Positions 10,141-35,479 are shown, counted from the first letter of the stretch. The stretch is DNA of 64,000 nt from Gemmatimonadota bacterium (GCA_963666735.1 OY762926.1:352001-416000); one strand, 5' to 3'. Notes: generated from the sequence alone by a model not told the origin. Program-made: numbers and translations.

Positions 10141-12156
10141 ATGAGAACAGCACGCGCCACAGCCCCCGCGCCGCCGTCCGTGTTCCGCCGTTTTCCACTC
10201 CTGCTCGTGCTCGGCTTCGCCGTTGCGGGCTGCGCGGAAGGCGGCGAGAGCGTAGCCGACCATGCCGACTGGAAGCACATCGCCGGCAACGACATGGGGC
10301 AGCGCTACTCGTCCCTCGACCAGATCGATCCGGAGAACTTCGAGAGCATCGAGGTGGCCTGGGTCTGGGAGGGATCCGACTACCCGGCCGTGAACGCCCG
10401 CGCCACGCCGATCTACGTGGACGGGATGCTGATCTCGGTGGCGGGCGAGAAGCGGCACACCTACGCGATCGACGCGGGCACGGGGGAGAGGGTCTGGGAG
10501 TACGTCGAGCCCGAGACCTTCCGCTGGGAGTACTCGATGCGGAAGAACCACGGGAAGGGCGTCGCGTACGGCGAGATCGACGGTCGCGCGGTCGTCTACA
10601 TGGCGAGTCCCGCCTTCTTCCTGCACGCGCTGTGGGCCGACACGGGCGAACACGTGGAGGGCTTCGGCGGTCCCGTCGGCGTCCCGGGCTTCCCGGAGTC
10701 GGGGGTCGTCGACCTGCTCGCGGGGCTCGGGCACGAGTTCGACCCGTACCACGGCATTCCGCTCGAGACCGGCTACATCACGAGTTCGTCCCCTCCGATC
10801 GTCGTAAACGGCGTGATCGTGATCGGGAACTCCGCCGAGCAGGGCTACAACCAGTCGCGGCGCGAGAACGTGCCGGGCGACATCCTCGGCTACGACGCGC
10901 GCACGGGCGACTTCATGTGGAAGTTCAACGTCCTCCCGGGACCCGGCGAGTTCGGCCACGAGACGTGGGAGAACGACGCCTGGGAGTGGACGGGCGACAT
11001 CTCGTCGTGGGCGCCGCTCTCCGCGGACGAGGAGCGGGGCATCGTCTACATCCCGACCAACGGGGCCACGATGGACTTTTGGGGCGGTTTCCGGCCGGGA
11101 GACAACCTGTTCTCGACGAGCCTGATCGCGCTCGATGTGCAGACGGGAGAGCGGGTTTGGCACTATCAGCTCGTGCACCACGACATATGGAACTACGACA
11201 CGCCGCAGATCCCCGTGCTGATGGACGTGACGGTGGATGGCGAGGATGTGCCGGCGGTCGTGCAGGTCACGAAGCAGGCCTTCGCGTACGCCTTCAACCG
11301 GGAGACGGGCGAGCCGATCTGGCCGATCGAGGAGCGGCCGGTGCCGGAGGGGCTCATGCCGGGCGAGGCGCTTTCGCCGACGCAGCCGTTCCCGACCAGG
11401 CCGGCGCCGTACGACATGCAGGGGCTGACGCACGACGACCTGATCGACTTCACGCCGGAGTTGCGGGAAGCCGCGATCGAAGCCCTCGACGACTACGTGA
11501 TCGGCCCGCTGTTCACGCCCCCGCTTCACCGGGACAACGACCTCGGCAAGGTGGCGTCGATGTGGTGTCCGGGAGATGTGGGAGGGACGAACATCGACGG
11601 GACGCCGGCGGCGGACCCGGAGACGGGGATCCTGTACGTGACGTCGCAGAAGGGGTGCGGGTCGCGGATCATGGTGCCGGGGGAGGAGCGCGACGCGCGG
11701 GAGCCGGCGCAGACGGGGACGACGATCACGAAGTTCGCGGTCGGGGGGTTCGCGGGCGTCCGGCGGGTGCAGGGTCTTCCGCTCTTCAAGCCGCCGTACA
11801 GCCGGATCACGGCGATCGACATGAACACGGGCGAGCACCTGTGGTGGATTCCGGTGGGCGACACGCCGAACAGCGTGCTCGAGCACGACGCGCTCCAGGG
11901 CATGGACGTCCCGAACACGGGCACGGGGCGGCAGGCGGCGCAGATCGTCACGAGCACCCTGCTCATGTACACGGGGGAGGGGAGCGACGGGACCTCCTAC
12001 CTGTTCGCCGTGGACAAGGCGACGGGCGAACGGCTGGGGCAGGTCGAGCTTCCGGCGCAGCCGCGGTACGGGATGATGACGTACATGCACGAAGGCAGGC
12101 AGCATGTGGTGATCCAGGCTCCCAACACGCTGATGGCGCTGCGTCTCGCCGACTGA
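10141..12156 (+). CDS. PQQ-dependent dehydrogenase (quinoprotein glucose DH-like), lipoprotein
   Basis: RYSSLDQID, WHYQLVHHDIWNYD and KPPYSRITAIDMNTGEHLW motifs; VAGC lipobox. Confidence 0.9.
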   Translation: MRTARATAPAPPSVFRRFPLLLVLGFAVAGCAEGGESVADHADWKHIAGNDMGQRYSSLDQIDPENFESIEVAWVWEGSDYPAVNARATPIYVDGMLISVAGEKRHTYAIDAGTGERVWEYVEPETFRWEYSMRKNHGKGVAYGEIDGRAVVYMASPAFFLHALWADTGEHVEGFGGPVGVPGFPESGVVDLLAGLGHEFDPYHGIPLETGYITSSSPPIVVNGVIVIGNSAEQGYNQSRRENVPGDILGYDARTGDFMWKFNVLPGPGEFGHETWENDAWEWTGDISSWAPLSADEERGIVYIPTNGATMDFWGGFRPGDNLFSTSLIALDVQTGERVWHYQLVHHDIWNYDTPQIPVLMDVTVDGEDVPAVVQVTKQAFAYAFNRETGEPIWPIEERPVPEGLMPGEALSPTQPFPTRPAPYDMQGLTHDDLIDFTPELREAAIEALDDYVIGPLFTPPLHRDNDLGKVASMWCPGDVGGTNIDGTPAADPETGILYVTSQKGCGSRIMVPGEERDAREPAQTGTTITKFAVGGFAGVRRVQGLPLFKPPYSRITAIDMNTGEHLWWIPVGDTPNSVLEHDALQGMDVPNTGTGRQAAQIVTSTLLMYTGEGSDGTSYLFAVDKATGERLGQVELPAQPRYGMMTYMHEGRQHVVIQAPNTLMALRLAD

Positions 12157-22066: not shown

Positions 22067-25000
22067 ATGGTGCCCAAGAAGCCCTGCCTGCCAACGCTCA
22101 GTGCCCCGGCCGCGTTACTTCTCGGACTGGTCATTTCGGGCTGCTCGGAGAGGGACCTAGACTCGCTGGGACCCGCACCTTCTCCCAGCAGTGGAGAGGT
22201 CTACCTCGACGGTTTCTCCCCCGGCCTGGAGTACCACGCCTTCGGCGGCTCCAAGGTCGATGCGCTGGACATCGATGAGACCGGCGGCCGCGCCGGTACC
22301 CCCAGCCTGAAGTTCACGATTCCGCTGCCGAACGATCCCGCCGGCGGCTACGCGGGCGGCGTATTCGTCGGCAGGCCGCCCCGCGATCTTTCCGTCTTCA
22401 CCGCGCTCACTTTCTGGACCCGGGCGAGGCAGGCGGCCACGCTCAACACCGTGGGCTTCGGCAACGACAACAGCGGCAATTCCAGATTCCCCGCCGAAGC
22501 GGGAGATGTGACCGTGTCGACGACGTGGAGCAAGGTCATCCTCCCCATCCCGGACCCCTCGAAACTGAGCGGCGAAGGCGGTCTGTTCTACCTCGCCGAG
22601 GGGGCGGAAAACAACCAGGGCAACGAGATCTGGTTCGATGAGGTCCGGTTCGAGGACATCCGGACCATCGCCAACCCGAGGCCGGCCATCGCCAGCGCGG
22701 ACATCGCGGGCGAACCCGGCGGCACGGCTCAGGTGATGGGAACGCAGATCACCTACGACGTGGCCGGCGAGGACCGGGTGATGAAGGCGAGCCCGGCCTA
22801 CTTCAGCTTCGGTTCCTCGGATCCGGGCGTGGTCACGGTCGACGCCGACGGAAAAATGACGTTCATCGGGCTGGGCACGGCGACCGTGACCGCCTCCCTC
22901 GGTTCGGTGCGGGCCGCCGGGACCGTCACGGTGAACGTGGGCGCCGCACCCGATGGCGGCCCGCCGGCTCCGGCGCGGCCCGCCGAGAATGTGATTTCGC
23001 TCTTCAGCGACGTGTACGACGACGTCACGGTGGACACCTGGTCGGCCGAGTGGGATCAGGCGGACTTCGAGGATGTGCAGCTTGCCGGCGACAACGCCAA
23101 GAAGTACTCGAACCTCGCGTTCGCCGGGATCGAGTTCACTTCGGCGCCGGTCGACGCTTCCGACATGAGCCATTTCCACTTCGATCTGTGGACTGGCGAT
23201 GAGACGGCGCCGCCGGCCGCGTTCAGGGTGAAACTCGTGGACTTCGGAGCCGACGGCTCGTTCGGCGGTGACGACGACAGCGAGCACGAGATCACGCTGA
23301 CCGCGGAATCGGGTCTCGCATCGCGAACATGGGTGAGTTTCGATGTGCCGTTGACGGACTTTGCGGGCTTGAGGGCCAGATCCAGCCTGGCGCAGCTCAT
23401 CATCTCGGGCGATCCGAACACGATCTATCTCGACAACATCTACTTCTGGGGCGAGGGCGCGCCTCCGCCCCCGCCTCCACCGCCGCCGGGCGCGATGGCG
23501 CCGGAGGAGCCGGCTCCGGCTCCCGAGCGTTCCGCGGATGACGTGATCTCCTTGTTCAGCGACGCCTACGAGGACGTGACGGTGGACACCTGGTCGGCGG
23601 AGTGGGACCAGGCGGATGTCGAGGACATCCAGGTGGCGGGCGACAACGTGAAGAAGTACTCGAACCTCGTGTTCGCGGGGATCGAGTTCACGTCGGCGCC
23701 GGTCGACGCCTCGGCGATGACGCACTTCCACCTGGATGTGTGGACGCCGGACCCGACGGCGGATCCGGCCGCCCTCAGGGTGAAGCTGGTCGACTTCGGC
23801 CCGAACGGGGTGCACGACGGCGGCGGAGACGACAGCGAACACGAGCTGTCGCTCACGGCAGCCTCGACGACGCCGTTGGCGACGGGGATGTGGCTGAGCT
23901 ACGACCTCGCGTTCGAGGAGATGTCGGGCCTCGCGGCGCGGGCGAGTCTCGCTCAGCTGATCATCTCGGGCGACCCGAACACGATCTTCGTCGACAACGT
24001 CTACTTCTGGGGCGAGAGCGCCCCGGCCCCGTCCGAGCCGCCGGTGGCGGCGCCGACGCCGAGCGTCGCGGCGGGCGACGTGATTTCGTTGTTCAGCGAC
24101 GCCTACGAGGACGTGACGGTGGACACCTGGTCGGCGGAGTGGGACCAGGCGGATGTCGAGGACATCCAGGTGGCGGGCGACAACGTGAAGAAGTACTCGA
24201 GCCTCGCGTTCGCGGGGATCGAGTTTACGTCGGCGCCGGTCGACGCCTCGGCGATGACGCACTTCCACCTGGACGTGTGGACGCCGGACCCGACGGCGGA
24301 TCCGGCCGCGTTCAGGGTGAAGCTGGTCGACTTCGGCCCGAACGGGGTGCACGACGGCGGCGGAGACGACAGCGAACACGAACTGTCGCTCACGGCAGCC
24401 TCGACGCCGCCGTTGGCGACGGGGATGTGGCTGAGCTACGACCTCGCGTTCGAGGAGATGTCGGGCCTCGCGGCGCGGGCGAGTCTGGCTCAGCTGATCA
24501 TCTCGGGCGACCCGAACACGATCTTCGTCGACAACGTCTACTTCTGGGGCGAGCGCGCCCCGGCCCCGTCCGAGCCGCCGGTGGCGGCGCCGACGCCGAG
24601 CGTCGCGGCGGGCGACGTGATTTCGTTGTTCAGCGACGCCTACGAGGACGTGGCTGTGGACACCTGGTCGGCGGATTGGGACCAGGGAGACGTCGCGGAT
24701 GTCGAGGTCGACGGGAATGCGGCGAAAATGTACTCGAACGTCGCCTTCGTGGGTGTGGAGTTCACATCGGCGCCGGTCGATGCCTCCGAGATGACCCACT
24801 TCCATATCGACCTCTGGACGGCGGACGAGACGGCCGATCCGGCGGCGTTCCGGGTCAAGCTGGTCGACTTCGGGGCCAACGGCGTGCATGACGGCGGGGG
24901 CGATGACAGCGAGCACGAGCTGTCGCTCACTGCGACCTCCGACCCGCCGCTGGCGACGGGGGTTTGGCTGAGCTACGACATCCCGCTGGCCGACTTCTCC

Positions 25001-25096
25001 GGTCTCGCCGAGACGGGCCATCTGGCGCAGCTGATCTTCTCGGGCGATCTGGGGGCCTTCTGGATCGACAACGTCTACTTCCGTCGCGACCAATGA
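22067..25096 (+). CDS. Multidomain lipoprotein: beta-sandwich domain, Ig-like (Big_2) domain and four putative glycan-binding repeats
   Basis: Lipobox ISGC; SSDPGVVTVDADG..T..G.GTATVTA Ig motif; four AP.P....DVISLFSD.Y...THFH.D.WT...VKLVDFG...DN.YF units separated by Pro-rich linkers; adjacent to GH16. Confidence 0.8.
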   Translation: MVPKKPCLPTLSAPAALLLGLVISGCSERDLDSLGPAPSPSSGEVYLDGFSPGLEYHAFGGSKVDALDIDETGGRAGTPSLKFTIPLPNDPAGGYAGGVFVGRPPRDLSVFTALTFWTRARQAATLNTVGFGNDNSGNSRFPAEAGDVTVSTTWSKVILPIPDPSKLSGEGGLFYLAEGAENNQGNEIWFDEVRFEDIRTIANPRPAIASADIAGEPGGTAQVMGTQITYDVAGEDRVMKASPAYFSFGSSDPGVVTVDADGKMTFIGLGTATVTASLGSVRAAGTVTVNVGAAPDGGPPAPARPAENVISLFSDVYDDVTVDTWSAEWDQADFEDVQLAGDNAKKYSNLAFAGIEFTSAPVDASDMSHFHFDLWTGDETAPPAAFRVKLVDFGADGSFGGDDDSEHEITLTAESGLASRTWVSFDVPLTDFAGLRARSSLAQLIISGDPNTIYLDNIYFWGEGAPPPPPPPPPGAMAPEEPAPAPERSADDVISLFSDAYEDVTVDTWSAEWDQADVEDIQVAGDNVKKYSNLVFAGIEFTSAPVDASAMTHFHLDVWTPDPTADPAALRVKLVDFGPNGVHDGGGDDSEHELSLTAASTTPLATGMWLSYDLAFEEMSGLAARASLAQLIISGDPNTIFVDNVYFWGESAPAPSEPPVAAPTPSVAAGDVISLFSDAYEDVTVDTWSAEWDQADVEDIQVAGDNVKKYSSLAFAGIEFTSAPVDASAMTHFHLDVWTPDPTADPAAFRVKLVDFGPNGVHDGGGDDSEHELSLTAASTPPLATGMWLSYDLAFEEMSGLAARASLAQLIISGDPNTIFVDNVYFWGERAPAPSEPPVAAPTPSVAAGDVISLFSDAYEDVAVDTWSADWDQGDVADVEVDGNAAKMYSNVAFVGVEFTSAPVDASEMTHFHIDLWTADETADPAAFRVKLVDFGANGVHDGGGDDSEHELSLTATSDPPLATGVWLSYDIPLADFSGLAETGHLAQLIFSGDLGAFWIDNVYFRRDQ
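22946..25081 (+). repeat. Four intragenic domain repeats (spacing 552, 537, 537 bp)
   Basis: GACGT(C/G)(ACG/GCT)GTGGACACCTGGTCGGC anchor at 23021, 23573, 24110 and 24647; copies 2 and 3 are nearly identical in DNA. Confidence 0.95.
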
Positions 25097-25947
25097 GCGG
25101 CGTGTGCGCGGTGACTCGGTTCGGATCCATCGCGAGAGCCTGTTCCGGAATGGGGCCGCTGGCGGCCCTGGTCGTCATCTCGGCGGGGTGCGGCGGCGAG
25201 GAGGAGCCCACGGCCCCGAGCCCGGCGCAGCTGATTTGGGAGGATGAATTCGATGGGCCGGCCGGCCAGTTGCCGGACCCGTCGCGCTGGGCGTTCGACA
25301 TCGGCACCGATTGGGGAAACCGGCAACTCGAGTTCGACACGGACCGTCCCGAAAACGTCTCCCTCGATGGGAACGGGAACCTGGCCATCACCGCTCGTCG
25401 CGAGGCTTTCAGCGGCAGTCAGTTCACGTCGGGCCGGATCAAGACCCAGCGGCTCTTCGAACAGGCCTATGGGCGTTTCGAGGCCCGCATCGACCTCCCC
25501 GCGGGCCGGGGCATCTGGCCCGCCTTCTGGCTGTTGGGCGCCGACATCGACACGGTCGGCTGGCCGGAGTGTGGCGAGATCGACGTGATGGAGTTCCGGG
25601 GGCAGGAACCGTCGGTCGTCCATGGCAGCCTGCACGGGCCGGGCTACTCGGCCGGCAACGCCGTGACGGCGCGCTACGCGCTGAACAACGACCGCTTCGA
25701 CACGGGCTTTCACACCTTCGCCGTCGAGTGGACCGAAGACCGGATCGAGTGGTTCGTGGACGGAGAGCGCTACCAGTCGGTCGGGCGTGACGACGTGCCG
25801 GGGCGCTGGGCCTACGACCACCCCTTCTTCATCATCCTGAATGTGGCGGTGGGCGGCGGCTTCGTCGGCCCGCCGGGCGAAGGCACGACCTTCCCGCAGA
25901 CGATGCTCGTCGACTGGGTGCGCGTCTACGGAATCGACGACTCGTGA
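25093..25947 (+). CDS. GH16 beta-1,3-glucanase (laminarinase-like) lipoprotein
   Basis: WEDEFDG, GIWPAFWLLG, catalytic GEIDVME, NVAVGG and VDWVRVY motifs; SAGC lipobox; ATGA overlap. Confidence 0.92.
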   Translation: MSGVCAVTRFGSIARACSGMGPLAALVVISAGCGGEEEPTAPSPAQLIWEDEFDGPAGQLPDPSRWAFDIGTDWGNRQLEFDTDRPENVSLDGNGNLAITARREAFSGSQFTSGRIKTQRLFEQAYGRFEARIDLPAGRGIWPAFWLLGADIDTVGWPECGEIDVMEFRGQEPSVVHGSLHGPGYSAGNAVTARYALNNDRFDTGFHTFAVEWTEDRIEWFVDGERYQSVGRDDVPGRWAYDHPFFIILNVAVGGGFVGPPGEGTTFPQTMLVDWVRVYGIDDS

Positions 25948-28007
25948 CCCACCGCACGGCCCCCGGCGACCGGATCTCCTTTCCGCACAAGATCGTCTAC
26001 GGGGTCGGCGGATTCGTAAACAACCTCCTTGCGCAGGGAATCGGCGGGATGACCGTCGTGCTCACGCTGGCCCTCGGCATGGATTTCCGGCTCGTGGGCC
26101 TGCTCGGCATGCTGCCGAGGTTCTTTGACGCGATCACGGACCCGCTCGTCGGTTTCGTCTCCGACCGGACGCGCTCCCGGTGGGGTCGGCGCCGACCGTT
26201 CCTGTTCGTTGGAGCGATCCTCTCCGGCGTCATCTTCGCGCTCCTGTGGCAGATGCCCGCGCCGACCCAGTTTCGGATCAAGCTGGTCGATTATGGCGCC
26301 GACGGGGTGTACAGCGGCGATGTCACCGGCGAGCCGGTCAGCATATTCGAAGCCGTTGGAGAATCGCTGCGCGACATCGTGACCATCGAAGTCACGGACG
26401 ATGTCGAGGACGAGGTCGCAATTCTTCCCCCGACGCTCGTCACCGGTGGCTGGGTCGGAATCGACGTGCCGCTCTCCGATTTCGACGAGCTCACCACGCG
26501 CGGGCACCTGTCCCAGATCCTGATTTCGGGCGACCTCACCGAAGTGTACGTCGACAACGTCTATCTCTATCGGACGGACGACACGGCGAGAGTGACGGTC
26601 TCGGGCGAGGACCGGGAAGGCCGCACGGCGCCGGACGTGCCCGCGCCCGTCCCCGCGTACCCGGCCGACAATGTGATCTCGTTCTTCAGCAACGAGTATG
26701 ACGATGTGCAGGTGGACTTCTGGTCCACGGACTGGGACGAGGCCGACGTGAGGGACGCCGGGGCCGCCGGCGACGACGTCAAGCACTACACCAACCTGAG
26801 GTTCGCCGGCATCGACTTCGGCCGGCAGCCGGTGGACGCCGGCGCCATGACGCATATCCATATGGATATCTGGACGCCGGAGACCACCGGCGAGGGCCGC
26901 AGTCAGGCGTACTATTTTTGGTACTTTCTGGTCGGGTCGCTGATCTTTTTCCTTGCTTACACCATCTTCGCCACGCCCTGGGTGGCGCTGGGGTACGAAC
27001 TCACGCCCGATTTCCATGAGCGCACGCGCCTCATGGGCGTGCAGAACTTCGTCGGGAACATCGCCTTCGTGATCGCTCCGTGGTTCCTCGTCGTAATGAC
27101 GAATCCGGCGTGGTTCCGGAACCAGATGGCCGGGGCCAGATTCCTGGCGCTCGGGATCTGCGTGACCGTCATCGCACTCGGGGTGCTGCCGGCGCTCTTC
27201 CTCCGCGAGCGGATCCCCGCGACGGCGGGGAACGAAGAGCGGAGCAGTGGACGCGAAGCCGTGGGCGAGTTCTTCGGAGGCCTCTGGCAGACGGTTCGAA
27301 CCGGCCCCTTCCTTCTGCTCTGCGTCGCGACCTTCCTGATCTTCAACAGCTTCATCATGATCTCGGCATTCCAGTTCTGGGTGTTCGTGTACTACGTCTC
27401 CGGCGGCAGCGTGGCGGACGGAGCGTCGCTAGCCGGACTTGTGGGCACGCTCGGCATCGTCGCCGGATTCGCGGTGATCGCGATCGTGACCTGGCTGGGT
27501 ACGAAGATCGGTAAGCGGAACGCCTTCTTCATCTCCACCGGGATCTCGATGTTCGGCTATGCGCTGAAATGGTTCTGCTACCACCCCGAATATCCCATGC
27601 TCACCCTGCTTCCGGCTCCCTTTCTGGCCTTCGGGCTGGGCGGCCTGTTCACACTGATGGGATCGATGATCGCGGACGTGGTGGACCTCGATGAGCTGAA
27701 CACGGGCGAGCGGCGCGAGGGGATGTTCGGGTCGGTGTACTGGTGGGTCGTAAAGGTGGGACAGAGCATCGCGCTGGGAGCGGGAGGCTTCCTGCTCGCC
27801 TCGACGGGACTCGATATCGACCTCGGCGCGAACCAGGCCGCGCGGACCATCACTCTACTGCGGGCGTACGACGCCTTCATACCCTTGATCGCTTCCGCGA
27901 TCGCGATCTTCGCGATCTACAAGTACCCGGTCACGGAGAGTACCGCCCTCAAGGTGCGGGCGCAGCTGGAGGAGCGGAGAGGGGCTGGCGCGGCAGCCGC
28001 CACCTGA
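25944..28007 (+). CDS. GPH/MFS sugar:cation symporter with an inserted, circularly permuted glycan-binding repeat
   Basis: FDAITDP..G..SDRTRSRWGRRRPF, ELTPDFHERTRL and ADVVDLDELNTGERREG motifs; ~205-aa soluble insert at 26271-26882 homologous to the lipoprotein repeats. Confidence 0.9.
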   Translation: MTHRTAPGDRISFPHKIVYGVGGFVNNLLAQGIGGMTVVLTLALGMDFRLVGLLGMLPRFFDAITDPLVGFVSDRTRSRWGRRRPFLFVGAILSGVIFALLWQMPAPTQFRIKLVDYGADGVYSGDVTGEPVSIFEAVGESLRDIVTIEVTDDVEDEVAILPPTLVTGGWVGIDVPLSDFDELTTRGHLSQILISGDLTEVYVDNVYLYRTDDTARVTVSGEDREGRTAPDVPAPVPAYPADNVISFFSNEYDDVQVDFWSTDWDEADVRDAGAAGDDVKHYTNLRFAGIDFGRQPVDAGAMTHIHMDIWTPETTGEGRSQAYYFWYFLVGSLIFFLAYTIFATPWVALGYELTPDFHERTRLMGVQNFVGNIAFVIAPWFLVVMTNPAWFRNQMAGARFLALGICVTVIALGVLPALFLRERIPATAGNEERSSGREAVGEFFGGLWQTVRTGPFLLLCVATFLIFNSFIMISAFQFWVFVYYVSGGSVADGASLAGLVGTLGIVAGFAVIAIVTWLGTKIGKRNAFFISTGISMFGYALKWFCYHPEYPMLTLLPAPFLAFGLGGLFTLMGSMIADVVDLDELNTGERREGMFGSVYWWVVKVGQSIALGAGGFLLASTGLDIDLGANQAARTITLLRAYDAFIPLIASAIAIFAIYKYPVTESTALKVRAQLEERRGAGAAAAT

Positions 28008-28036
28008 CCGAACCGCCACCTGGCCGTCAGGAGCCG

Positions 28037-29923
28037 TCAGGAGGCTTCCGCTCGCCCTGCCCCGGGGCGAGAGCCCATGGTGAGTCCATAGCCGACGGGG
28101 AACCGCGTCTCGTCCGGTTCGCCCCGGGCAACATCGTTCGCGGGCCATGTGTGGGCGAGGCGGCCCTGGAACTCGTGGTCGCCGAACAGCACTTCGGCGA
28201 CGCCGGCTCCCTCCGAGCCCGGCAGCCAGGCAGCCACGAACGCGTCCGCCGCCTCCAGTTCCTCCGTGACGACCAGCGGCCGCCCGGAAACGAGGACGGC
28301 CACCACCCGGATACCTCGGGCTCTCAGCGACCGAATGGTAGCGAGGTCCTCGGGGTGCAGCCGCGATAGCCGCAGGGTGTCGCCGTAGGGGCGAAGACGG
28401 GCGGGGCCCGGGGCGGGGGGCTGGACCTCGTCCGCGCCCGGAGCTTCCGGAGGAGGCGCAGTCCAATCTCGGATGTCGCCCGGACCCTCGGCGTAGGGTT
28501 CTTCTCCGATCACGACGATGGCCACTTCAAAGTGTCCGTCGTCCTCCGCCCCATCGTTCTCGCCCAACCGTTGCGCGCGCGGTGCGATCTGCCTGATGCC
28601 CTCCCAGACGGACGCGCCCCCCTCGATCCGGCCGTTCCCCCGCACGCCCTGCCATTCCACCGTGAAGCCCCCGCACAACGCCCCTCGATCATGCGCGTTG
28701 CGCCCCGCGACGAGTATCCGGGCGTCGCGGTGGAGCGGGAGGACACTCTCTTCATTCTTCAGCAAAACCAGCGACTTTCGTACGGCCTCTCTCGCCACCT
28801 CGCGGTGGCCCGCGGACCCGAAGCTGGCGTGGTTCGACCACTTTCGGGCGGCCGGACGCGGTTGGTCGAAGAGTCCGCAAGCCTCCTTTACGGCGAGGAT
28901 CCGCCCCGCCGCATCATCGATGCGCGCTTCGTCCACGGCACCCGCCTCCACCTGTCTCACGACTTCCGAGATGAACCGCGGCCATTGTTCCGGAACCATG
29001 AAGAGGTCGATCCCCGCGCTGACCGACCTGCGGACGGCCTCACCGAAATCGTCCGAGATCGCGAAGATGCCGTTCCAGTCCGACACGACGAACCCGGAGA
29101 AGCCCAGCTCGCCCTTGAGCACATCCGTGATGAGATACCGGTGCTCGTGACACAGGACCCCCTTCCAGCTGCTGAGCGAGACCATGACGGCGAGAGCGCC
29201 GACTTCCAGTGCCGGGACATACGGAGACAGGTGCGTTCTCCGCAGCTCCGCCTCCTCCGCCAGGGTCTGCCCCTGATCCACGCCGTCCATCGTGCCGCCG
29301 TCTCCGGCCCAGTGCTTCGGACAGGCGAGGACCCCGTCATCGCCGAAACCCGCCTGCAGACCCCGGACGATCCGCGGAGCGTATTCCGCGACGAGATCCG
29401 GCACTTCGGAGAAGCTCTCGTAGCTTCGGCCCCAGCGGCAGTCACCGGCGACGGCCAGCGTGGGCGCCAGATTCCAGTCCAGCCCGGTCGCCAGCACCTC
29501 CCGGGCGGTCACGCGGGCGATGCGTTCCACGAGTGCCGGGTCGTGAGCCGCGCCCAGGCCGATATTGTGTGGGAAGACGGTGGCGCCGAGGACATTGTTG
29601 TGCCCGTGGACGGCGTCCACCGCGTAGATGAGAGGGATGCCGGGCTGTCCGTCCCACCCCTCCGTCGAGGCGGCCCAGTAGGCGTCGTTCGTTGCGACCC
29701 AGTCCGCGGGGCGGTTGCGGCCGGGGAGTGAGCCCGCGCCGCTGAGGACCGAACCCACACCGAAGCGGCGGACCTGCTCAGGCGAGATGTGCAGCCTCTC
29801 GGCCTGCACCATCTGCGCGGCCTTGCGCGGAAGGCTGAGCCGCGAGAGAAGGCGCGCGACACGCGTCGATGGCTTCACCTGCGGGGGTCGGAACGATGCC
29901 TGGCGGTTGGGCCGGCCACTCAC
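28037..29923 (-). CDS. GH3 beta-glucosidase / beta-glucan exohydrolase, no evident signal peptide
   Basis: DAVHGHNN, RWGRSYES, KHWAGDGGT, nucleophile VSDWN, GEEPYAE and AWLPGSEG motifs; GTGA overlap with the upstream gene. Confidence 0.92.
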   Translation of the reverse strand: MSGRPNRQASFRPPQVKPSTRVARLLSRLSLPRKAAQMVQAERLHISPEQVRRFGVGSVLSGAGSLPGRNRPADWVATNDAYWAASTEGWDGQPGIPLIYAVDAVHGHNNVLGATVFPHNIGLGAAHDPALVERIARVTAREVLATGLDWNLAPTLAVAGDCRWGRSYESFSEVPDLVAEYAPRIVRGLQAGFGDDGVLACPKHWAGDGGTMDGVDQGQTLAEEAELRRTHLSPYVPALEVGALAVMVSLSSWKGVLCHEHRYLITDVLKGELGFSGFVVSDWNGIFAISDDFGEAVRRSVSAGIDLFMVPEQWPRFISEVVRQVEAGAVDEARIDDAAGRILAVKEACGLFDQPRPAARKWSNHASFGSAGHREVAREAVRKSLVLLKNEESVLPLHRDARILVAGRNAHDRGALCGGFTVEWQGVRGNGRIEGGASVWEGIRQIAPRAQRLGENDGAEDDGHFEVAIVVIGEEPYAEGPGDIRDWTAPPPEAPGADEVQPPAPGPARLRPYGDTLRLSRLHPEDLATIRSLRARGIRVVAVLVSGRPLVVTEELEAADAFVAAWLPGSEGAGVAEVLFGDHEFQGRLAHTWPANDVARGEPDETRFPVGYGLTMGSRPGAGRAEAS

Positions 29924-32900
29924 ATGGCGATGTGGACGTACGTCCGGATCTCCCACTCGCTCCCGTCATCGCCCGAGCGTCCCGGCTCGCAGGTGGCGAA
30001 GCCGTTGGCGTCGACCGACGGGGCGGCGCAGTAACGGGGTGAATTCATGTCCAGCGACCGCCATCCGGCCCGGATTCCGAACCGTGTCCCCGGCATGTCG
30101 AACCAGCCCGGCCGGCCCAGGGAGTAGGAAAGGTCGGCCATCAACTGAAGCGGGAACGTGTGGTTGAAGTCGCGGTGATAGTCGTAGGGTCCCCAGTCGT
30201 TCACCCTCGCGAACGTTTCCAGCTTGAGCGGCCCGCTGATCGCCCGCAGTTGGATCCCATGCCGGCGGATGAGACGCTGGCTGTCTCCGTTCGGCTCGCC
30301 GGTCCCCGTGTAGATGTTGGCGATGAAGCCGGAACTGCCGGTCCGCTTGGAGACGAGGCGGGCGTTCACCTCCCACACGTCCCGCGCGGGCGGGGCGCCC
30401 GGGAAGGCGAAGATGGATCGTCCATCGGCCAGGATCCCGATCCCCGCGTCCTGCGTTGTGCCGAAGCTCTTGTAAGTGAATCCGACGGTGGCCGCGAAGG
30501 CCGCATCCTCGCGTATGTCGCTGTCCCACGAGTGCATCCACGTCGCGGGCGTGGGGTCGTAGGTGAGGAGGAACTCCAGCGCTCTCGTCTCCCGGTTCCA
30601 TCCGCGGACGGCGAACGGGTCGTCGACGACGTTGCGCGGACGCGCCGGCGCCGGGGCGTCCGCCGGAACCGGTCCCACGATCGGCCTCTGCCACAGGAAA
30701 TTGGGCGCGATCTGCCAGTTGCCCGCGTTCAGGGCCACGCCCGTGAGGACGTTGTACTGGTTTCCCATCCCGCTGTCGCGCAGCCACCAGCCGGTGAAGG
30801 TCTGCGTCGCGGTGGGCCCGCCCTCCGCGACCAGGCCCATCGCGGCCCCCTGGACGTACCAGTTCCAGCGGCCCCTGGTGAGAGTGAGCTTGGCCTTGGC
30901 GCCGAACGCATCCCTCGCCTCGATCTGGTCTCCGAGCACCTCGTAGCTTCCAGGGTCGCCGCGCACGATCTGGAACGCCTGCCCCTCCTTGGTGGATCCG
31001 GACCAGATGCCGCCCACCTCGATCACGGCGTCGCCGCGAGTGGCGGCAACGTGCACGGTCGCCTTGCGGGTCGGGGGCAGCGGCACGGCGAACGAACTCG
31101 CCACGGCCCCCTGTTCGGCGAGGTCCTCCTGATAGACGACCGTCGTCTGGAACGGCCCCACGTTCTTCGTCAGCTTGCCGAGGACCGCCGGATTCGCGCC
31201 CCACCAGAGTTCGGGACCGAACGCCACGGACAGACCGTCGAACAGTCTCTTGCCCTCGATCTCCACTCCCAGCGGCGCCATGCCGTTGTAGATGTCGATA
31301 TTCGGACCGTAGTTGGCCTCGCGGTACAGTCCGAAGAAGTCTCCCTCGTAGCCCCAGTGATAGTGGCCGGTGCGATAGAAGCCGTTGAGGCGGAACCATG
31401 AATCGTCCCACGACAGATTCGCCTGGTAGACCTTCAGCCGTTCGAGGTCGCCGAGAACGAACTGTTCGCCGTCGGCCTCCACGGTGCGGGGCCGCCCGCG
31501 GTTCTCGTAGAAGATCTCGTCGATGGGGTTGTTCGGGACCGCCCCGAGCACGTTGACGATGACTTCGCCCTCAATGCCTCCGGCCGGCCGCGCCGTGATG
31601 CCGCCGTAGAACGACTGCAGCTGGTCGAAGCCCCGGAACGATGGCCGCCCACGCGAGACGGTTGGGGCATCCTCCGGAGTGCTGATGACCGAACCGCCGG
31701 TGCTGAACGTCTCGAACTCCGCCCGCAGACTACTCACCTGGAAGCGATCGAGGATCGAGGAACTGAACGCCGCCCGGTCGCCGCGCGCCTGAAGCTCGGC
31801 CGTCTCGGGCATGATCGACGCAAAATGCCGCCCGATCGTCTCCATCGTCGTCCCCGGCCCGTAGGGATCGAGTTCGTAGACGTCGCGGAGGGCATAGTAC
31901 GCGGCGCGCGGGAACAGTTCGTACAGGCCCTCGTGGTCCGTCGGTCCCTTCGCGACGATACCCCACCACTCCTCGTTCATGTTGTTCTGGCCGGGCACGT
32001 AGTCGTCGGGATACGCATCGTTGGCCCAGGAGGCGTTCGTGTCCTGGACATCGAGGTTGTCCTCCTGCCCGAACTTCCACCAGCCGTCCGTCCACTGGAA
32101 CGTCATCCCGCCGATGGAATTGCCCACGCCGCCCTTGCCGGCGGACTCTTCGTAAATCTCCTGCCACTGGTCGAGGAGATAGCGTGTCTGCATGAGCTGG
32201 TCTTCGCGCATCGCGCGCGCGTTCCACACGTCCGCTCCGAACTCCGTGAACAGCACGCCCATCCCGAGCTTCTCGTCGACTTCCTCGAAGAAATCGTTGA
32301 ACGACCGGCCGCGGTACACGTTCGCGCCGAGGACGTCGAGGTTCCCCGCCTCCTCGGCGATGAGGTCGATGTACTGCAGGTCGCCGTTCGCGTAGGCCAC
32401 GGGACGCGTGGGATCCATCTCCTTGATGAGCTCCGTCGCGTCCCCGACGAGCGAGTACAGGTAACGGGCGCGGCCGATGTCCCGCTCGCCCTCCGGCATG
32501 TCCTCGGTCTCCGCCGAGCTCCAGAAAAGACCGTAGTTGTTCTCGTTGCCGAGCAGCCACATCAGCACGCCGGGCGTGTCCCTGAACGCCTCCACCATGT
32601 CCTCGACCTCGGCGAGAACGACGGCGCGGGATGCGGGGTCCGCGTAGTTGGTGTTGGCCTCGAACACGCCGTTGACCGTCACGCCGTAGCGGCCGAGCGC
32701 GTGGTTGAGGACGGTCCAGATGCCGTAGTTCTCCCAGATGTACTCGACCCACTCCGGCGTAATCCCGACGTAGGCCCGAATCGCGTTGACTCCCATCGCC
32801 CTGGCGAGACCCATCTCCCGGTCGAGCGCCGCCTTGATCAGGTCGTCCGACTCGGTCCAGAAGTTGTAGTTGTAGGTCGTGCCGCGGGGGAAGTAATCCC

Positions 32901-33105
32901 AGTTAATGCCGAGGACCATGAAGTCGTCGCCGTCCACCTGCAGCCTGATCCCGCTGTCGTCCCTCACGAGTTCAATCCCGGGGAGCGGAGGATCGGCGGA
33001 TTGCGCTGCGACACCGGGGAGACCGAACAGGGCGATCGACACGACAAGGGCGCTCCCGAGGCCGAGGAGGCGCTGCCGGAGTCGGGGGAAAGTCGCGCCG
33101 GGCAT
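29920..33105 (-). CDS. Clan GH-A (GH2-TIM-like) glycoside hydrolase fused to a probable outer-membrane beta-barrel
   Basis: Signal peptide; LLGNENNYG (acid/base) and FTEFGAD (nucleophile); C-terminal ~600 aa of aromatic-rich amphipathic strands ending WEIRTYVHIAM. Confidence 0.7.
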   Translation of the reverse strand: MPGATFPRLRQRLLGLGSALVVSIALFGLPGVAAQSADPPLPGIELVRDDSGIRLQVDGDDFMVLGINWDYFPRGTTYNYNFWTESDDLIKAALDREMGLARAMGVNAIRAYVGITPEWVEYIWENYGIWTVLNHALGRYGVTVNGVFEANTNYADPASRAVVLAEVEDMVEAFRDTPGVLMWLLGNENNYGLFWSSAETEDMPEGERDIGRARYLYSLVGDATELIKEMDPTRPVAYANGDLQYIDLIAEEAGNLDVLGANVYRGRSFNDFFEEVDEKLGMGVLFTEFGADVWNARAMREDQLMQTRYLLDQWQEIYEESAGKGGVGNSIGGMTFQWTDGWWKFGQEDNLDVQDTNASWANDAYPDDYVPGQNNMNEEWWGIVAKGPTDHEGLYELFPRAAYYALRDVYELDPYGPGTTMETIGRHFASIMPETAELQARGDRAAFSSSILDRFQVSSLRAEFETFSTGGSVISTPEDAPTVSRGRPSFRGFDQLQSFYGGITARPAGGIEGEVIVNVLGAVPNNPIDEIFYENRGRPRTVEADGEQFVLGDLERLKVYQANLSWDDSWFRLNGFYRTGHYHWGYEGDFFGLYREANYGPNIDIYNGMAPLGVEIEGKRLFDGLSVAFGPELWWGANPAVLGKLTKNVGPFQTTVVYQEDLAEQGAVASSFAVPLPPTRKATVHVAATRGDAVIEVGGIWSGSTKEGQAFQIVRGDPGSYEVLGDQIEARDAFGAKAKLTLTRGRWNWYVQGAAMGLVAEGGPTATQTFTGWWLRDSGMGNQYNVLTGVALNAGNWQIAPNFLWQRPIVGPVPADAPAPARPRNVVDDPFAVRGWNRETRALEFLLTYDPTPATWMHSWDSDIREDAAFAATVGFTYKSFGTTQDAGIGILADGRSIFAFPGAPPARDVWEVNARLVSKRTGSSGFIANIYTGTGEPNGDSQRLIRRHGIQLRAISGPLKLETFARVNDWGPYDYHRDFNHTFPLQLMADLSYSLGRPGWFDMPGTRFGIRAGWRSLDMNSPRYCAAPSVDANGFATCEPGRSGDDGSEWEIRTYVHIAM

Positions 33106-33319: not shown

Positions 33320-34024
33320 TCAGCGGGGCAGGCCGATCCCCACGGAGAGCGTCGCCCCGCTGGCGGAATACGCGTAGTCGAAAAGCATACCGGGAATCTC
33401 TTCCGCCCACTCGGTCAGGGAGCGCGAGTAGCCGAGGCGCAGATCGATCCGCCAACCCCTGTCGAGCAGCAACCCGAGGCCGACCGTCACCGGCCGCCGG
33501 GCGCGTTGCTCTCGCCGCTCTCCCCGTTCGCCGTTCTCCGGGTTGACGCCGCTCGTCGCGAACTCGCTCCACATCCGGCGGATCCCGCCGAACACATAGC
33601 CCTGCGTCGAGTTGCCCCCGGCACCGAGTCCGAGGAATACGTTGACCCCGACTCCGAAGCGGTCGTGGAGGTCCCACTCGCCGGGCCACACATCGTGCGG
33701 TTCGCCGTTCGGCGTGGGTTCGATCGTCCCCTCGATCTTTCCCCGTCCGTCAACCACTCCCTCGAACTCCAGGCCCGCGAGCAGCCCGCCGAGGATCCGC
33801 GTGCGGAGCCCGACGGAGGGGTTGATCGCGAAGGTCGGACCCGAGGCCGTCGTGGCGCTCTCGCTCGAGCCGTCGCCCACCGTCACGCGCTTGGAGTGTT
33901 CCGCGGAGAGCCAGCCGGCCTCGGGCGCCAGCCGAAGGAACATCTCGGACTGAGCGCGGATCGGCGGCGCGGCCAGCATGGAGACGCAGACAGCGAGGGT
34001 TTTGGGTCCGGCGAACCGGATCAC
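33320..34024 (-). CDS. Small outer-membrane beta-barrel-like protein
   Basis: Signal peptide; alternating strands (FGVGVNVFLG, WRIDLRLGYS, ATLSVGIG); GTGA overlap. Confidence 0.6.
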   Translation of the reverse strand: MIRFAGPKTLAVCVSMLAAPPIRAQSEMFLRLAPEAGWLSAEHSKRVTVGDGSSESATTASGPTFAINPSVGLRTRILGGLLAGLEFEGVVDGRGKIEGTIEPTPNGEPHDVWPGEWDLHDRFGVGVNVFLGLGAGGNSTQGYVFGGIRRMWSEFATSGVNPENGERGERREQRARRPVTVGLGLLLDRGWRIDLRLGYSRSLTEWAEEIPGMLFDYAYSASGATLSVGIGLPR

Positions 34025-34452
34025 CGAGGCGCGGATCTTCCGGTCACCGCGACCACGCCGCAGTTCGTGAGCAGGCGCTGCGCGTCGGCCTTGCCGGAGT
34101 CGGAAGGTCCGAGCCGGTTCTCGCCTTGTTCGTCCTCGTCCTCGAGGCGCGAGGCGACGACGCGAATATGCGTGTTTCCCGTGGCGGGATTGTCGAACAC
34201 GCTCGCCGTCAGGATGTCGTGCCGCGCCCCGGCGAAGAGTGCCTCCACGACGCCGGAGGTCTGCCTGCGACCCCGCACGAACCCGGCCTCGAGATTGCCG
34301 TCCTCGATCGTGTAGTCCATGAGGTTCAATTGCGCGACCGCGCAGCGATAGGCCGTTTCCAGCCCCGGCGGAGCGACGCCCTGGAGTGAGACGGGCGCGG
34401 TGGAACAGCCCGCGAGCACGATCGCGACCGGGATTCCCGCGACTCTCTTCAT
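34021..34452 (-). CDS. Hypothetical lipoprotein
   Basis: SD GGAG; MKR..LAGC lipobox. Confidence 0.7.
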   Translation of the reverse strand: MKRVAGIPVAIVLAGCSTAPVSLQGVAPPGLETAYRCAVAQLNLMDYTIEDGNLEAGFVRGRRQTSGVVEALFAGARHDILTASVFDNPATGNTHIRVVASRLEDEDEQGENRLGPSDSGKADAQRLLTNCGVVAVTGRSAPR

Positions 34453-34507
34453 GTCTTCAATCTCCGGGGATTGCAGATTCGCCGCCAGTAGTGAAGCCTT
34501 CGATCCC

Positions 34508-35479
34508 ATGACGATCCGAGTTCGCGCGCCGTCACGCGCCGCCGCCGCAGTGATCCTCGTGACCGGTTCGATCGCGCTGGGCGGAGGGGCCTGCTCTTCT
34601 CATCCCGGCACGGTCACCGGCGGGGGAACCCCCCGGGTCTTGTTGATCGGGATCGACGGCGTGCGCCCGGATGTGCTCGCGGACGTGCCGACTCCGGTCA
34701 TGGATTCCCTCGCCGCGGGCGGATGGTACACGGCGGACACGCGCACGACCATCCCACCGGTCAGCGGCCCGGCCTGGTCTTCGATCCTCACCGGCGTGTG
34801 GCCGGCGAAACACGGTGTGCTGGATAACGGATTCCAGGGGCGGCGATACGCGGAGCACGCGGATTTTCTGACGCTCGTTGAGCGGGAGCGACCCGGCCTC
34901 TCGACGTTCGCGGCCCTCGACTGGTTGCCCCTGGCCGTCCTCGATGGGGGAGGCCCGGCGCTATCCGATGCCATCGACACGCGGTTTGTCGTGGACGGGT
35001 ACGAACTCGGGTGGGCGGAAGCGGACAGCACCATCGCGGGCCGAGCGGCGGAACATCTGGCGGAAGCAGACCCGGCCGCGGCTTTCGTCTACCTCGGGAA
35101 TCCGGATGAGACGAGTCATCGACACGGGTCGGTCGGGGCCGAATACCGCGACGCGATCGCCCTGTCGGATCGCCACGTCGGCTGGATGATGGAGGCGCTG
35201 CGGGCGCGGCCCACATACGAGGAGGAGGACTGGCTCGTGCTCATTAGCACGGACCACGGCCGGCGCGAGGACGGCGGCCACGGCGGAGACTCGCCGGAAG
35301 AGATGACGATCTTCATCCTCGCGAGCGGTGAGGCGACGAGACACTGGCCCGCGGCGGGATCCGGCCCCACCTACATCGTCGATGTCCCGGTCACGGCGCT
35401 CCACCACCTGGGCGTGTCCGCCGGTTCCGACGCCGACTTCGACGGTACGCCGCTCGGTACTCCGCGCGTGGACCCGTAG
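34508..35479 (+). CDS. Alkaline phosphatase superfamily (nucleotide pyrophosphatase-like) lipoprotein
   Basis: LLIGIDGVRPD, SGPAWSSILTG, DETSH and STDHG...HGG motifs. Confidence 0.85.
   Translation: MTIRVRAPSRAAAAVILVTGSIALGGGACSSHPGTVTGGGTPRVLLIGIDGVRPDVLADVPTPVMDSLAAGGWYTADTRTTIPPVSGPAWSSILTGVWPAKHGVLDNGFQGRRYAEHADFLTLVERERPGLSTFAALDWLPLAVLDGGGPALSDAIDTRFVVDGYELGWAEADSTIAGRAAEHLAEADPAAAFVYLGNPDETSHRHGSVGAEYRDAIALSDRHVGWMMEALRARPTYEEEDWLVLISTDHGRREDGGHGGDSPEEMTIFILASGEATRHWPAAGSGPTYIVDVPVTALHHLGVSAGSDADFDGTPLGTPRVDP

Follow-up and report, generated by a model that had tools for sequence, protein, structure and literature searches.

The DNA examined here is a 64,000-nucleotide stretch from a Gemmatimonadota bacterium (GCA_963666735.1, OY762926.1:352001-416000; hereafter the window, from whose first letter positions are counted), in which five genes, A to E, occupy positions 22067..33105. 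The five very probably form a locus for the utilization of β-1,3-glucan of the laminarin type. Protein E is predicted to carry a glycoside hydrolase (GH) domain of clan GH-A in front of an outer-membrane β-barrel, and we propose that this barrel is the TonB-independent entry channel of the cassette, a reading to which we assign a probability of roughly 0.6. In its more far-reaching form, on which our judgement is evenly poised, the proposal makes E the founder of a new class of proteins for glycan import: a channel of about 24 strands, without a plug and with its own periplasmic glucanase, which would cut laminarin as it leaves the pore, draw it inward by this means and need neither TonB nor SusD. 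E would then head a system present in a quarter of the sampled Flavobacteriaceae and in several phyla, hidden under the label 'GH2', and would in the present lineage hand its products to a symporter with a permuted glycan-binding domain.

The genome is assembled as a single contig of 3.98 Mb, with a guanine-plus-cytosine (GC) content of 68.5% and a completeness of 94%; the GC content of the locus, 64-69%, is close to the genome-wide value. The closest named relative among the matches of gene E is Candidatus Palauibacter (Gemmatimonadota), at 90% identity. The five open reading frames (ORFs) are arranged as two convergent units, A-B-C on the plus strand and E-D on the minus strand. Neighbours within each unit overlap, through ATGA (A/B), through GTGA (B/C) and, for E/D, through a GTG at 29923 that is in frame and lies over the stop codon of E; judged by these overlaps, both units are probably translationally coupled. 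An earlier interpretation of this DNA (the sequence-only reading) had described two convergent, translationally coupled units with the same gene families, and all five ORFs were found where it had placed them. It had also noted the lack of any TonB-dependent transporter (TBDT), SusD, ATP-binding cassette (ABC) transporter or regulator, and none was present among the ORFs between 22067 and 33105.

Protein E is predicted to combine a glucanase-like domain with an outer-membrane barrel

Gene E (29920..33105, minus strand) encodes a Sec-type signal peptide, a clan GH-A glucanase-like domain, two helices and a predicted outer-membrane β-barrel. The protein was modelled with AlphaFold2 from an alignment of 116 sequences (pLDDT 80, pTM 0.72), and the model was read as secondary structure. 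In it, the TIM barrel of the enzyme domain (residues 44-409; 31879..32976, minus strand) is followed by helices 421-448 and by β strands over residues 455-1060 (29926..31743, minus strand). Leaving out two hairpins within long loops, we counted 24 strands in the model, 23 of which have one face that is clearly more lipophilic. On one side of the barrel, 9 of the 11 turns comprise 2-6 residues and two are longer, while the loops on the opposite side are long. Loops 579-611, 630-640 and 970-986 are 93-98% conserved and contain 16 near-invariant aromatic or His residues. No plug domain was found in E, the model consisting here of the helices and then the 24 strands. Strand amphipathicity and the pattern of turns and loops thus predict that the C-terminal region is an outer-membrane β-barrel, in agreement with the sequence-only reading, which had described E as a barrel fused to a hydrolase.

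The 610-residue C-terminal region matched no Pfam family at E-value ≤ 1, autotransporter and sugar-porin families included. TBDTs combine an N-terminal plug with a barrel of 22 strands, and their signatures PF07715 and PF00593 gave no Pfam match in E. A search of the ESM Atlas returned unnamed clusters and a weaker lead to DUF6029. The barrel folded alone and without an alignment reached a pLDDT of 29.5 and was not used for fold search; in fold searches with E, the listing was filled by matches to the enzyme domain. A complex prediction of the barrel with the N-terminal and Ig-like domains of protein A scored 0.00, which is evidence for neither side. The family is large, accounting for 5473 of the 8000 candidate clusters scored, and includes barrel-only homologues of about 590 residues (P0190, P0216 and P0260) with signal-peptide-like N-termini and a C-terminal Phe.

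Since the number of strands is even and the N-terminus lies on the short-turn side, standard barrel topology would place the enzyme domain in the periplasm, behind the pore, so that the glucan would be cut after passage. The succession of signal peptide, enzyme, helices 421-448 and C-terminal barrel is, on the other hand, also the layout of type V secretion. E might accordingly be read as autotransporter-like, with the helix before strand 1 threading the barrel, the GH-A domain displayed on the surface and the barrel serving secretion or anchoring. Autotransporter barrels have 12 strands in type Va and 16 in type Vd, whereas 24 are predicted for E. The missing match to autotransporter families and the existence of barrel-only homologues also speak against such an arrangement, which would leave the locus without any outer-membrane route. 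We regard it as quite improbable.

The enzyme domain resembles GH158 and GH157 β-1,3-glucanases

In Pfam, the enzyme domain of E matches a GH2_C-like TIM barrel (Glyco_hydro_2_C, E-value 2.7e-10). The domain layout of E does not fit its database label, GH2: only Glyco_hydro_2_C matches, the catalytic domain begins straight after the signal peptide, and no sugar-binding or Ig domains precede the TIM barrel. N187-E188 and E288 are invariant in 116 of 116 aligned sequences. In the model, E188 sits after strand 180-186 and E288 within strand 283-289, in keeping with clan GH-A, where strands 4 and 7 of the (β/α)8 fold each have a Glu at their end.

Foldseek placed GH158 and GH157 at the top of the matches of the domain. 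A wide structural search (VIA) gave GH157 a Z-score of 28.2 (root-mean-square deviation 3.0, 314 aligned residues), a GH2 one of 27.2 and GH158 one of 27.1, both tied with GH157 within about 1 Z, and a GH5 mannanase one of 26.6. At the level of sequence profiles, E matched 6PAL (GH158, E-value 7.6e-5), 9ORO (9.4e-4) and a GH2 (6.9e-5). E has the clan GH-A TIM barrel and the positions of the catalytic glutamates in common with GH158 (BuGH158, 6PAL; GH158(Pro), 9ORO) and GH157 (LaGH157, 9FZ9), but is only 12-20% identical to them and is fused to a 610-residue barrel. Because the Z-scores of GH157, GH2 and GH158 tie and that of GH5 is close, we derive the substrate of E mainly from its genomic context.

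E, A and GH16 form a core conserved across phyla

We compared the best 80 of at least 597 loci carrying E; these are the closest loci, not a random sample, and many lie on short contigs. They span Gemmatimonadota, Krumholzibacteriota, Eisenbacteria, Ignavibacteria, Bacteroidota, Fibrobacteraceae, Myxococcota and others. Homologues of A were found in 55 of the 80, GH16 in 53, a transporter of the major facilitator superfamily (MFS) in 39, a ROK repressor in 37, GH3 in 31 and GH1 in 19; less frequent were GH17 (14), GH30 (10), an Opp-type binding protein (8), a BguR-type regulator (8) and a TBDT (3). Among the 44 loci of at least 20 kb, A was present in 41 and GH16 in 40, while a TBDT occurred in 3, against a chance expectation of about 13% at the TBDT density of the window genome. 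E, A and GH16 are retained, while the loci differ in their inner-membrane transporters (MFS or Opp-type ABC) and in their glucosidases (GH3 or GH1). In place of the MFS transporter, L023, L041, L045, L050, L051, L054, L059 and L061 have an Opp/Dpp-type ABC system (SBP_bac_5).

A comparison of gene neighbourhoods across phyla had been suggested by the sequence-only reading as a check, and the core of E, A and GH16 was indeed kept in several phyla. Of 61 relatives of the window genome, 11 have E, 12 the A-type repeat and 18 GH16, and every genome with E has both repeat and GH16; these genomes are kin, not independent, and the counts are given without a statistic.

The GH17, GH30 and GH1 genes of the related loci count towards a β-1,3-glucan substrate. 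The same substrate had been named by the sequence-only reading and is supported by the solved relatives of B, by the Foldseek matches of E to GH158 and GH157, and by the similarity of the A repeat to surface glycan-binding proteins (SGBPs) encoded next to SusD in laminarin loci (see below).

The glucan might be the cell's own, with genes that turn over or remodel a periplasmic or surface β-glucan and with E as an export or editing unit. Synthase-dependent export systems have such a layout, pairing a glycanase in the periplasm with a barrel in the outer membrane. In addition, one GH17 from flavobacterial loci of this kind acts as a transglycosylase (10.64898/2026.01.22.701063). However, inspection of recurrent neighbour clusters, with Pfam scans of some representatives, showed no apparent glycosyltransferase. 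An osmoregulated periplasmic glucan system would be marked by OpgG/OpgH or by a cyclic glucan synthase; in the 94%-complete genome neither MdoG (PF04349) nor GH94 (PF06165) was found, although the positive controls were detected, with OpgH left outside this search; a search for GH17 (PF00332) ran without a positive control. The symporter, the cytoplasmic glucosidase, the ROK repressor and the BguR-type regulator are each indicative of catabolism. No support was thus found for turnover of periplasmic glucan made by the cell itself, which the sequence-only reading had offered as a second option, and we consider this explanation very improbable.

E occurs with and without SusC/SusD in Flavobacteriaceae

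E was detected in 31 of 121 Flavobacteriaceae genomes, after one weak match (E-value 7e-4) had been dropped. Thirty further E loci were read over up to 20 kb, together with ten BguR loci without E, in each case the top-scoring ones on adequate contigs. In all ten E-less control loci, SusC-SusD lies directly behind BguR (representatives were confirmed by Pfam), as published for BguR (10.64898/2026.01.10.698779). E itself stands directly after BguR in 16 of the 30 E loci. Four of the 30 have no SusC in the stretch read and no BguR directly upstream. On a quick tree of E, the SusC/D block requires at least six gains or losses, while E, A and GH16 stay together.

Two of the ten control loci contain, between GH17 and GH30, a 342-residue enzyme-only homologue of E (L116:2463-3491 and L118:2200-3225; 26% identity, shared C-terminal motifs), the best PDB match of which is a GH158 (E-value 1.4e-8). 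This protein may be the 'GH0' of bloom polysaccharide utilization loci (PULs); a 'GH0', and one laminarin PUL without susCD, are described in PMC10108472.

The ROK regulon of relatives contains the cassette and no detected TonB-dependent transporter

In most relatives a ROK gene lies between A and GH16. From 31 upstream regions we derived a 25-base-pair ROK operator and scanned genomes for it at ≤3 mismatches. The operator is present in 37 of 37 ROK loci. In all nine ROK-bearing Gemmatimonadota genomes it marks both outer ends of the cassette, with two sites each. One of them, the congener G035, has an extra site with three mismatches inside a Cas10/Cmr2-like ORF (L129:618-2492; recognised by eye, with Cmr-like neighbours). 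An Anaeromyxobacter and a deltaproteobacterial genome hold three sites apiece, none of them away from the cassette. In two Krumholzibacteria, ten sites lie off the cassette, with neighbours that include GH1, MFS, secreted GH16 and GAPDH-like genes; BLAST of TBDT and SusC queries against these neighbours gave no match. This operator set (G189:C3 L167-L171; G194 L172 and L173) is a wider glucan regulon. Three off-locus, operator-like sites with three mismatches were found in G188, where a reversed control gave as many matches as the pattern itself. A co-regulated TBDT elsewhere in the genome, the search for which the sequence-only reading had recommended, was thus not found in relatives by operator scan.

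The cassettes of the window genome and of G017, G019, G021 and G025 lack the ROK gene as well as the operator, while five other congeners have both. At ≤3 mismatches no operator was found in the window genome, and a remnant was rejected, the best intergenic match in the window having 8-10 mismatches. On these sequence comparisons, the absence of a regulator that the sequence-only reading had noted is correct for this locus but is a recent, lineage-specific loss, as most relatives carry ROK. Because gene and operator are gone, expression here is probably constitutive or under other control.

Weighing the channel against uptake by other transporters

Several observations weigh against a channel function of E. 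Strand 1 of the modelled barrel shows no lipophilic alternation. Closure of the barrel, the width of its lumen and the side on which the enzyme domain lies are deduced from secondary structure only, and the modelled fold of E, with its tied Z-scores, does not fix the substrate. The regulon test applies to relatives only, the window genome having lost the operator. This genome also holds 4 SusC proteins that pass the TIGR04056 cut-off, with a lipoprotein-like ORF behind each, and 22 TBDT barrels that pass that of PF00593. In one related locus (L003), a TBDT stands co-directionally behind GH3 and is 55% identical to the ZnuD/heme-like TBDT of the window described below. In the Flavobacteriaceae, 10 of the 30 E loci read BguR, SusC, SusD, further genes and then E-A-GH16. 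A laminarin-type SusD (called at E-value ≤1e-95, above a clear score gap, or as an in-locus pair) exists somewhere in 14 of the 31 E genomes; in the other 17 no close one was found, some of which may be false negatives, as one of 10 known in-locus SusDs, that of G113, escaped the query. A further 31 genomes have a laminarin-type SusD and no E.

The SusC/SusD genes within E loci, and the SusC and TBDT complement of the window genome, would suit a β-1,3-glucan cassette in which the barrel of E is a mere anchor or accessory and oligomers enter by way of general porins or of a TBDT/SusC from an unlinked locus. Yet a 600-residue barrel with 93-98% conserved aromatic loops far exceeds the needs of an anchor. 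No TBDT was found to share the operator in relatives, and the two types of TBDT tested do not track the cassette: SusC is present in 10 of 11 genomes with E and 37 of 50 without, and a homologue of the nearest TBDT in 8 of 11 and 16 of 50, respectively. To this are added the 17 E genomes in which no close laminarin SusD was found, and the repeated changes of the SusC/D block next to an E-A-GH16 group that stays joined. We therefore think an anchor unlikely and prefer the channel.

Strict mutual exclusion of E and SusC/D was also considered and rejected, given the ten loci that carry both. By gene content, E is compatible with SusC/D but often the sole candidate outer-membrane route. The sequence-only reading had cast the locus as an alternative to the Sus model; E loci without SusC/D are common, as this would have it, but the two are not exclusive. 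The proposed E route would be an alternative to SusC/D that is able to coexist with it.

The SusC gene nearest to the locus is more than 150 kb away. The nearest TBDT gene (window 7202-9418), ZnuD/heme-like and below the cut-offs, ends about 12.6 kb upstream of A; it was rejected as a partner of the cassette, which it does not track. Three tandem pairs of SusC and lipoprotein are found at G000:C1:1851330-1867389, and many congeners have similar arrays, whether or not they carry the cassette. The SusD families PF07980 and PF12771 miss the lipoproteins that accompany SusC in the window genome; they are insensitive in this phylum and were not used as evidence. Of the canonical features of a PUL, the locus has clustered carbohydrate-active enzymes (CAZymes) and a transporter for one glycan, the two units of which share an operator in relatives, and lacks a SusC/SusD pair; since it would act like a PUL without that feature, we class it as a PUL variant.

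Partner proteins of the cassette

Gene A (22067..25096, plus strand) encodes a lipoprotein (lipobox ISG-C26, with Cys26) with a predicted role in glucan capture. An N-terminal domain (residues ~41-206) and an Ig-like domain (~207-292; weak Big_2/Big-like matches under the cut-off) precede four repeats that resemble carbohydrate-binding modules (CBMs). By alignment, these tandem repeats of about 165 residues each (22955..25087, plus strand) cover residues 297-462, 481-649, 660-828 and 839-1007. Language-model features relate the repeat to galactose-binding-domain-like clusters of CBM4/11/30 type, which we treat only as a lead. Used as a profile, the four repeats match, over the full profile length, the repeats of ~700-residue lipoproteins encoded after SusD in flavobacterial laminarin PULs (i-E-values 1e-17 to 1e-24). 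These features predict that A is a glucan-capture lipoprotein. PDB sequence searches with the A repeat, single-sequence E and a flavobacterial SGBP returned nothing relevant. PF26918 matches many repeat proteins among the homologues. A second multi-repeat protein is encoded about 1.1 Mb from the cassette at G019:C1:1745453-1748053.

Gene B (25093..25947, plus strand) encodes a GH16 lipoprotein (E-value 4.9e-27; lipobox-like SAG-C33), predicted to be an endo-β-1,3-glucanase and the sole GH16 found in the genome. It contains the catalytic motif EIDVME (ExDxxE). Its top ten PDB matches are glucanases, laminarinases or unnamed hydrolase/GH16 entries, the first being a β-1,3-glucanase (2hyk, E-value 1.9e-76). 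Fold, motif and nearest characterized relatives thus predict a GH16 of laminarinase type, a candidate GH16_3.

Gene C (25944..28007, plus strand) encodes an MFS symporter of the GPH/MelB type (MFS_2, PF13347, E-value 2e-58), the predicted inner-membrane importer of short glucans. It shares the MFS_2 family with MelB and the GPH symporters and scores 156 against TIGR00792, under the cut-off of 231. Helices 1-3 align with MelB (E-value 1.8e-10), where FDAITDP corresponds to WDAINDP and YT to YT; we take these residues to form the cation-site motif of helix 2. Between helices 3 and 4, C contains an insert of about 210 residues (26259..26894, plus strand), which alignment to the repeat profile identified as a circularly permuted A-type repeat: profile positions 86-168 come first and positions 2-86 second (i-E-values 7.9e-15 and 1.4e-35). 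The insert, predicted to be periplasmic, replaces a 12-residue loop between the segments aligned to MelB helices 3 and 4. A binding-domain insert in the symporter, as the sequence-only reading had it, is thereby confirmed as homologous to the A repeat. It is present in 61 of 61 homologues selected for alignment from 120 listed, and in 9 of 57 MFS homologues of E loci, all from Palauibacter/Longimicrobiales-type Gemmatimonadota. An MFS protein with a C-terminal extension of about 300 residues occurs in L094 and L105, and in L105 BLAST assigns the extension to GH17.

Gene D (28037..29923, minus strand) encodes a GH3 β-glucosidase (E-value 1.7e-69). Its probable start is the GTG at 29923, the longest ORF beginning at 29956. 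By eye, no signal peptide was seen in D or in 28 listed homologues, which supports the predicted cytoplasmic location, also assumed by the sequence-only reading. Two Ignavibacteria loci (L046:2212-5550 and L052:1421-4825) have MFS and GH3 in one open frame, a probable transporter-glucosidase fusion, which fits a cytoplasmic GH3 partner.

Upstream of E, two unannotated genes (window 33320-34509) encode a possible small outer-membrane protein of 234 residues and a probable lipoprotein of 162 residues; they were rejected as members of the cassette, being found beside E in only 1 of the 80 loci, that of the closest relative. A gene like those of PQQ (pyrroloquinoline quinone)-dependent glucose/quinate-type dehydrogenases lies at window 10141-12156.

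Discussion

The evidence suggests the following route. Lipoprotein A would gather glucan at the cell surface via its CBM-like repeats, and the GH16 lipoprotein B, probably also surface-exposed, would shorten it. Oligomers would diffuse through the plug-less barrel of E, past the conserved aromatic loops, and the GH-A domain on the periplasmic side would cut the entering glucan and so keep the gradient directed inward. The symporter C would then import short oligomers, aided by its periplasmic permuted repeat, and the cytoplasmic GH3 D would free glucose. In most relatives, a ROK repressor would control both units. The sequence-only reading had arranged the pathway similarly; its barrel, symporter and cytoplasmic GH3 are retained, whereas the enzyme of E would, by standard topology, cut only after passage.

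LamB, ScrY, ChiP and CymA are substrate-specific, TonB-independent sugar porins. E shares with porins of this type a predicted plug-less barrel, aromatic-rich loops and a gene among catabolic genes; it differs from them in having no Pfam match, more predicted strands and a covalently fused hydrolase.

Flavobacterial laminarin PULs have been defined as variants (PMC6298971). Variants A and B, as well as the C. forsetii PUL (10.1101/2023.09.07.556657), have GH16, GH3, an MFS transporter and a glycan-binding lipoprotein with multiple repeats in common with the cassette, and flavobacterial E loci additionally share the BguR-type regulator, GH17 and GH30 with them. In contrast, the present locus has E instead of SusC/SusD and a GH3 without signal peptide, and its relatives have a ROK repressor, lost here. 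The laminarin-binding CBMxx of Cf-SGBP (10.1101/2023.09.07.556657) belongs to a protein whose position and layout match the repeat lipoproteins encoded after SusD, and the A repeat is linked to it through those lipoproteins. A differs from Cf-SGBP in its N-terminal part, and its repeat has no PDB sequence match. We presume that CBMxx is the family now numbered CBM102.

A laminarin PUL of Muricauda consists of LuxR, 'GH2', GH16, GH149 or GH3, GH17, GH30, MFS and GH17 (10.64898/2026.01.22.701063). This gene order is that of the BguR-E-A-GH16 loci, and the main text of that source contains no instance of the term 'SusC'. Its accessible parts treat the 'GH2', which may be a homologue of E, as an ordinary glycosidase and mention no barrel. 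GH2 has also been reported in laminarin PULs with SusC/D, together with a CAZyme cluster with MFS (PMC11345257). Marine Gemmatimonadota have GH16_3 (PMC11316326). A transporter joined to a carbohydrate-active domain is known from the MFS-GH17 fusion of Formosa (PMC6246565), which has a C-terminal enzyme, whereas C has a permuted CBM-like module in loop 3-4. We found no description of a hydrolase-barrel fusion or of a TonB-independent laminarin route in the open-access literature.

In the sea, laminarin is a major pool of carbon. For these phyla, the published models of how it is taken up are built on SusC/SusD, whose expression has been taken as a proxy for the turnover of glycans (PMC6298971). 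If susCD is made a requirement for a PUL, the 17 of 31 Flavobacteriaceae E genomes in which no close laminarin-type SusD was found would be overlooked. If E is a channel, it would represent a new family of outer-membrane channels and a fusion of hydrolase and channel, and laminarin would have a second, TonB-independent route of entry.

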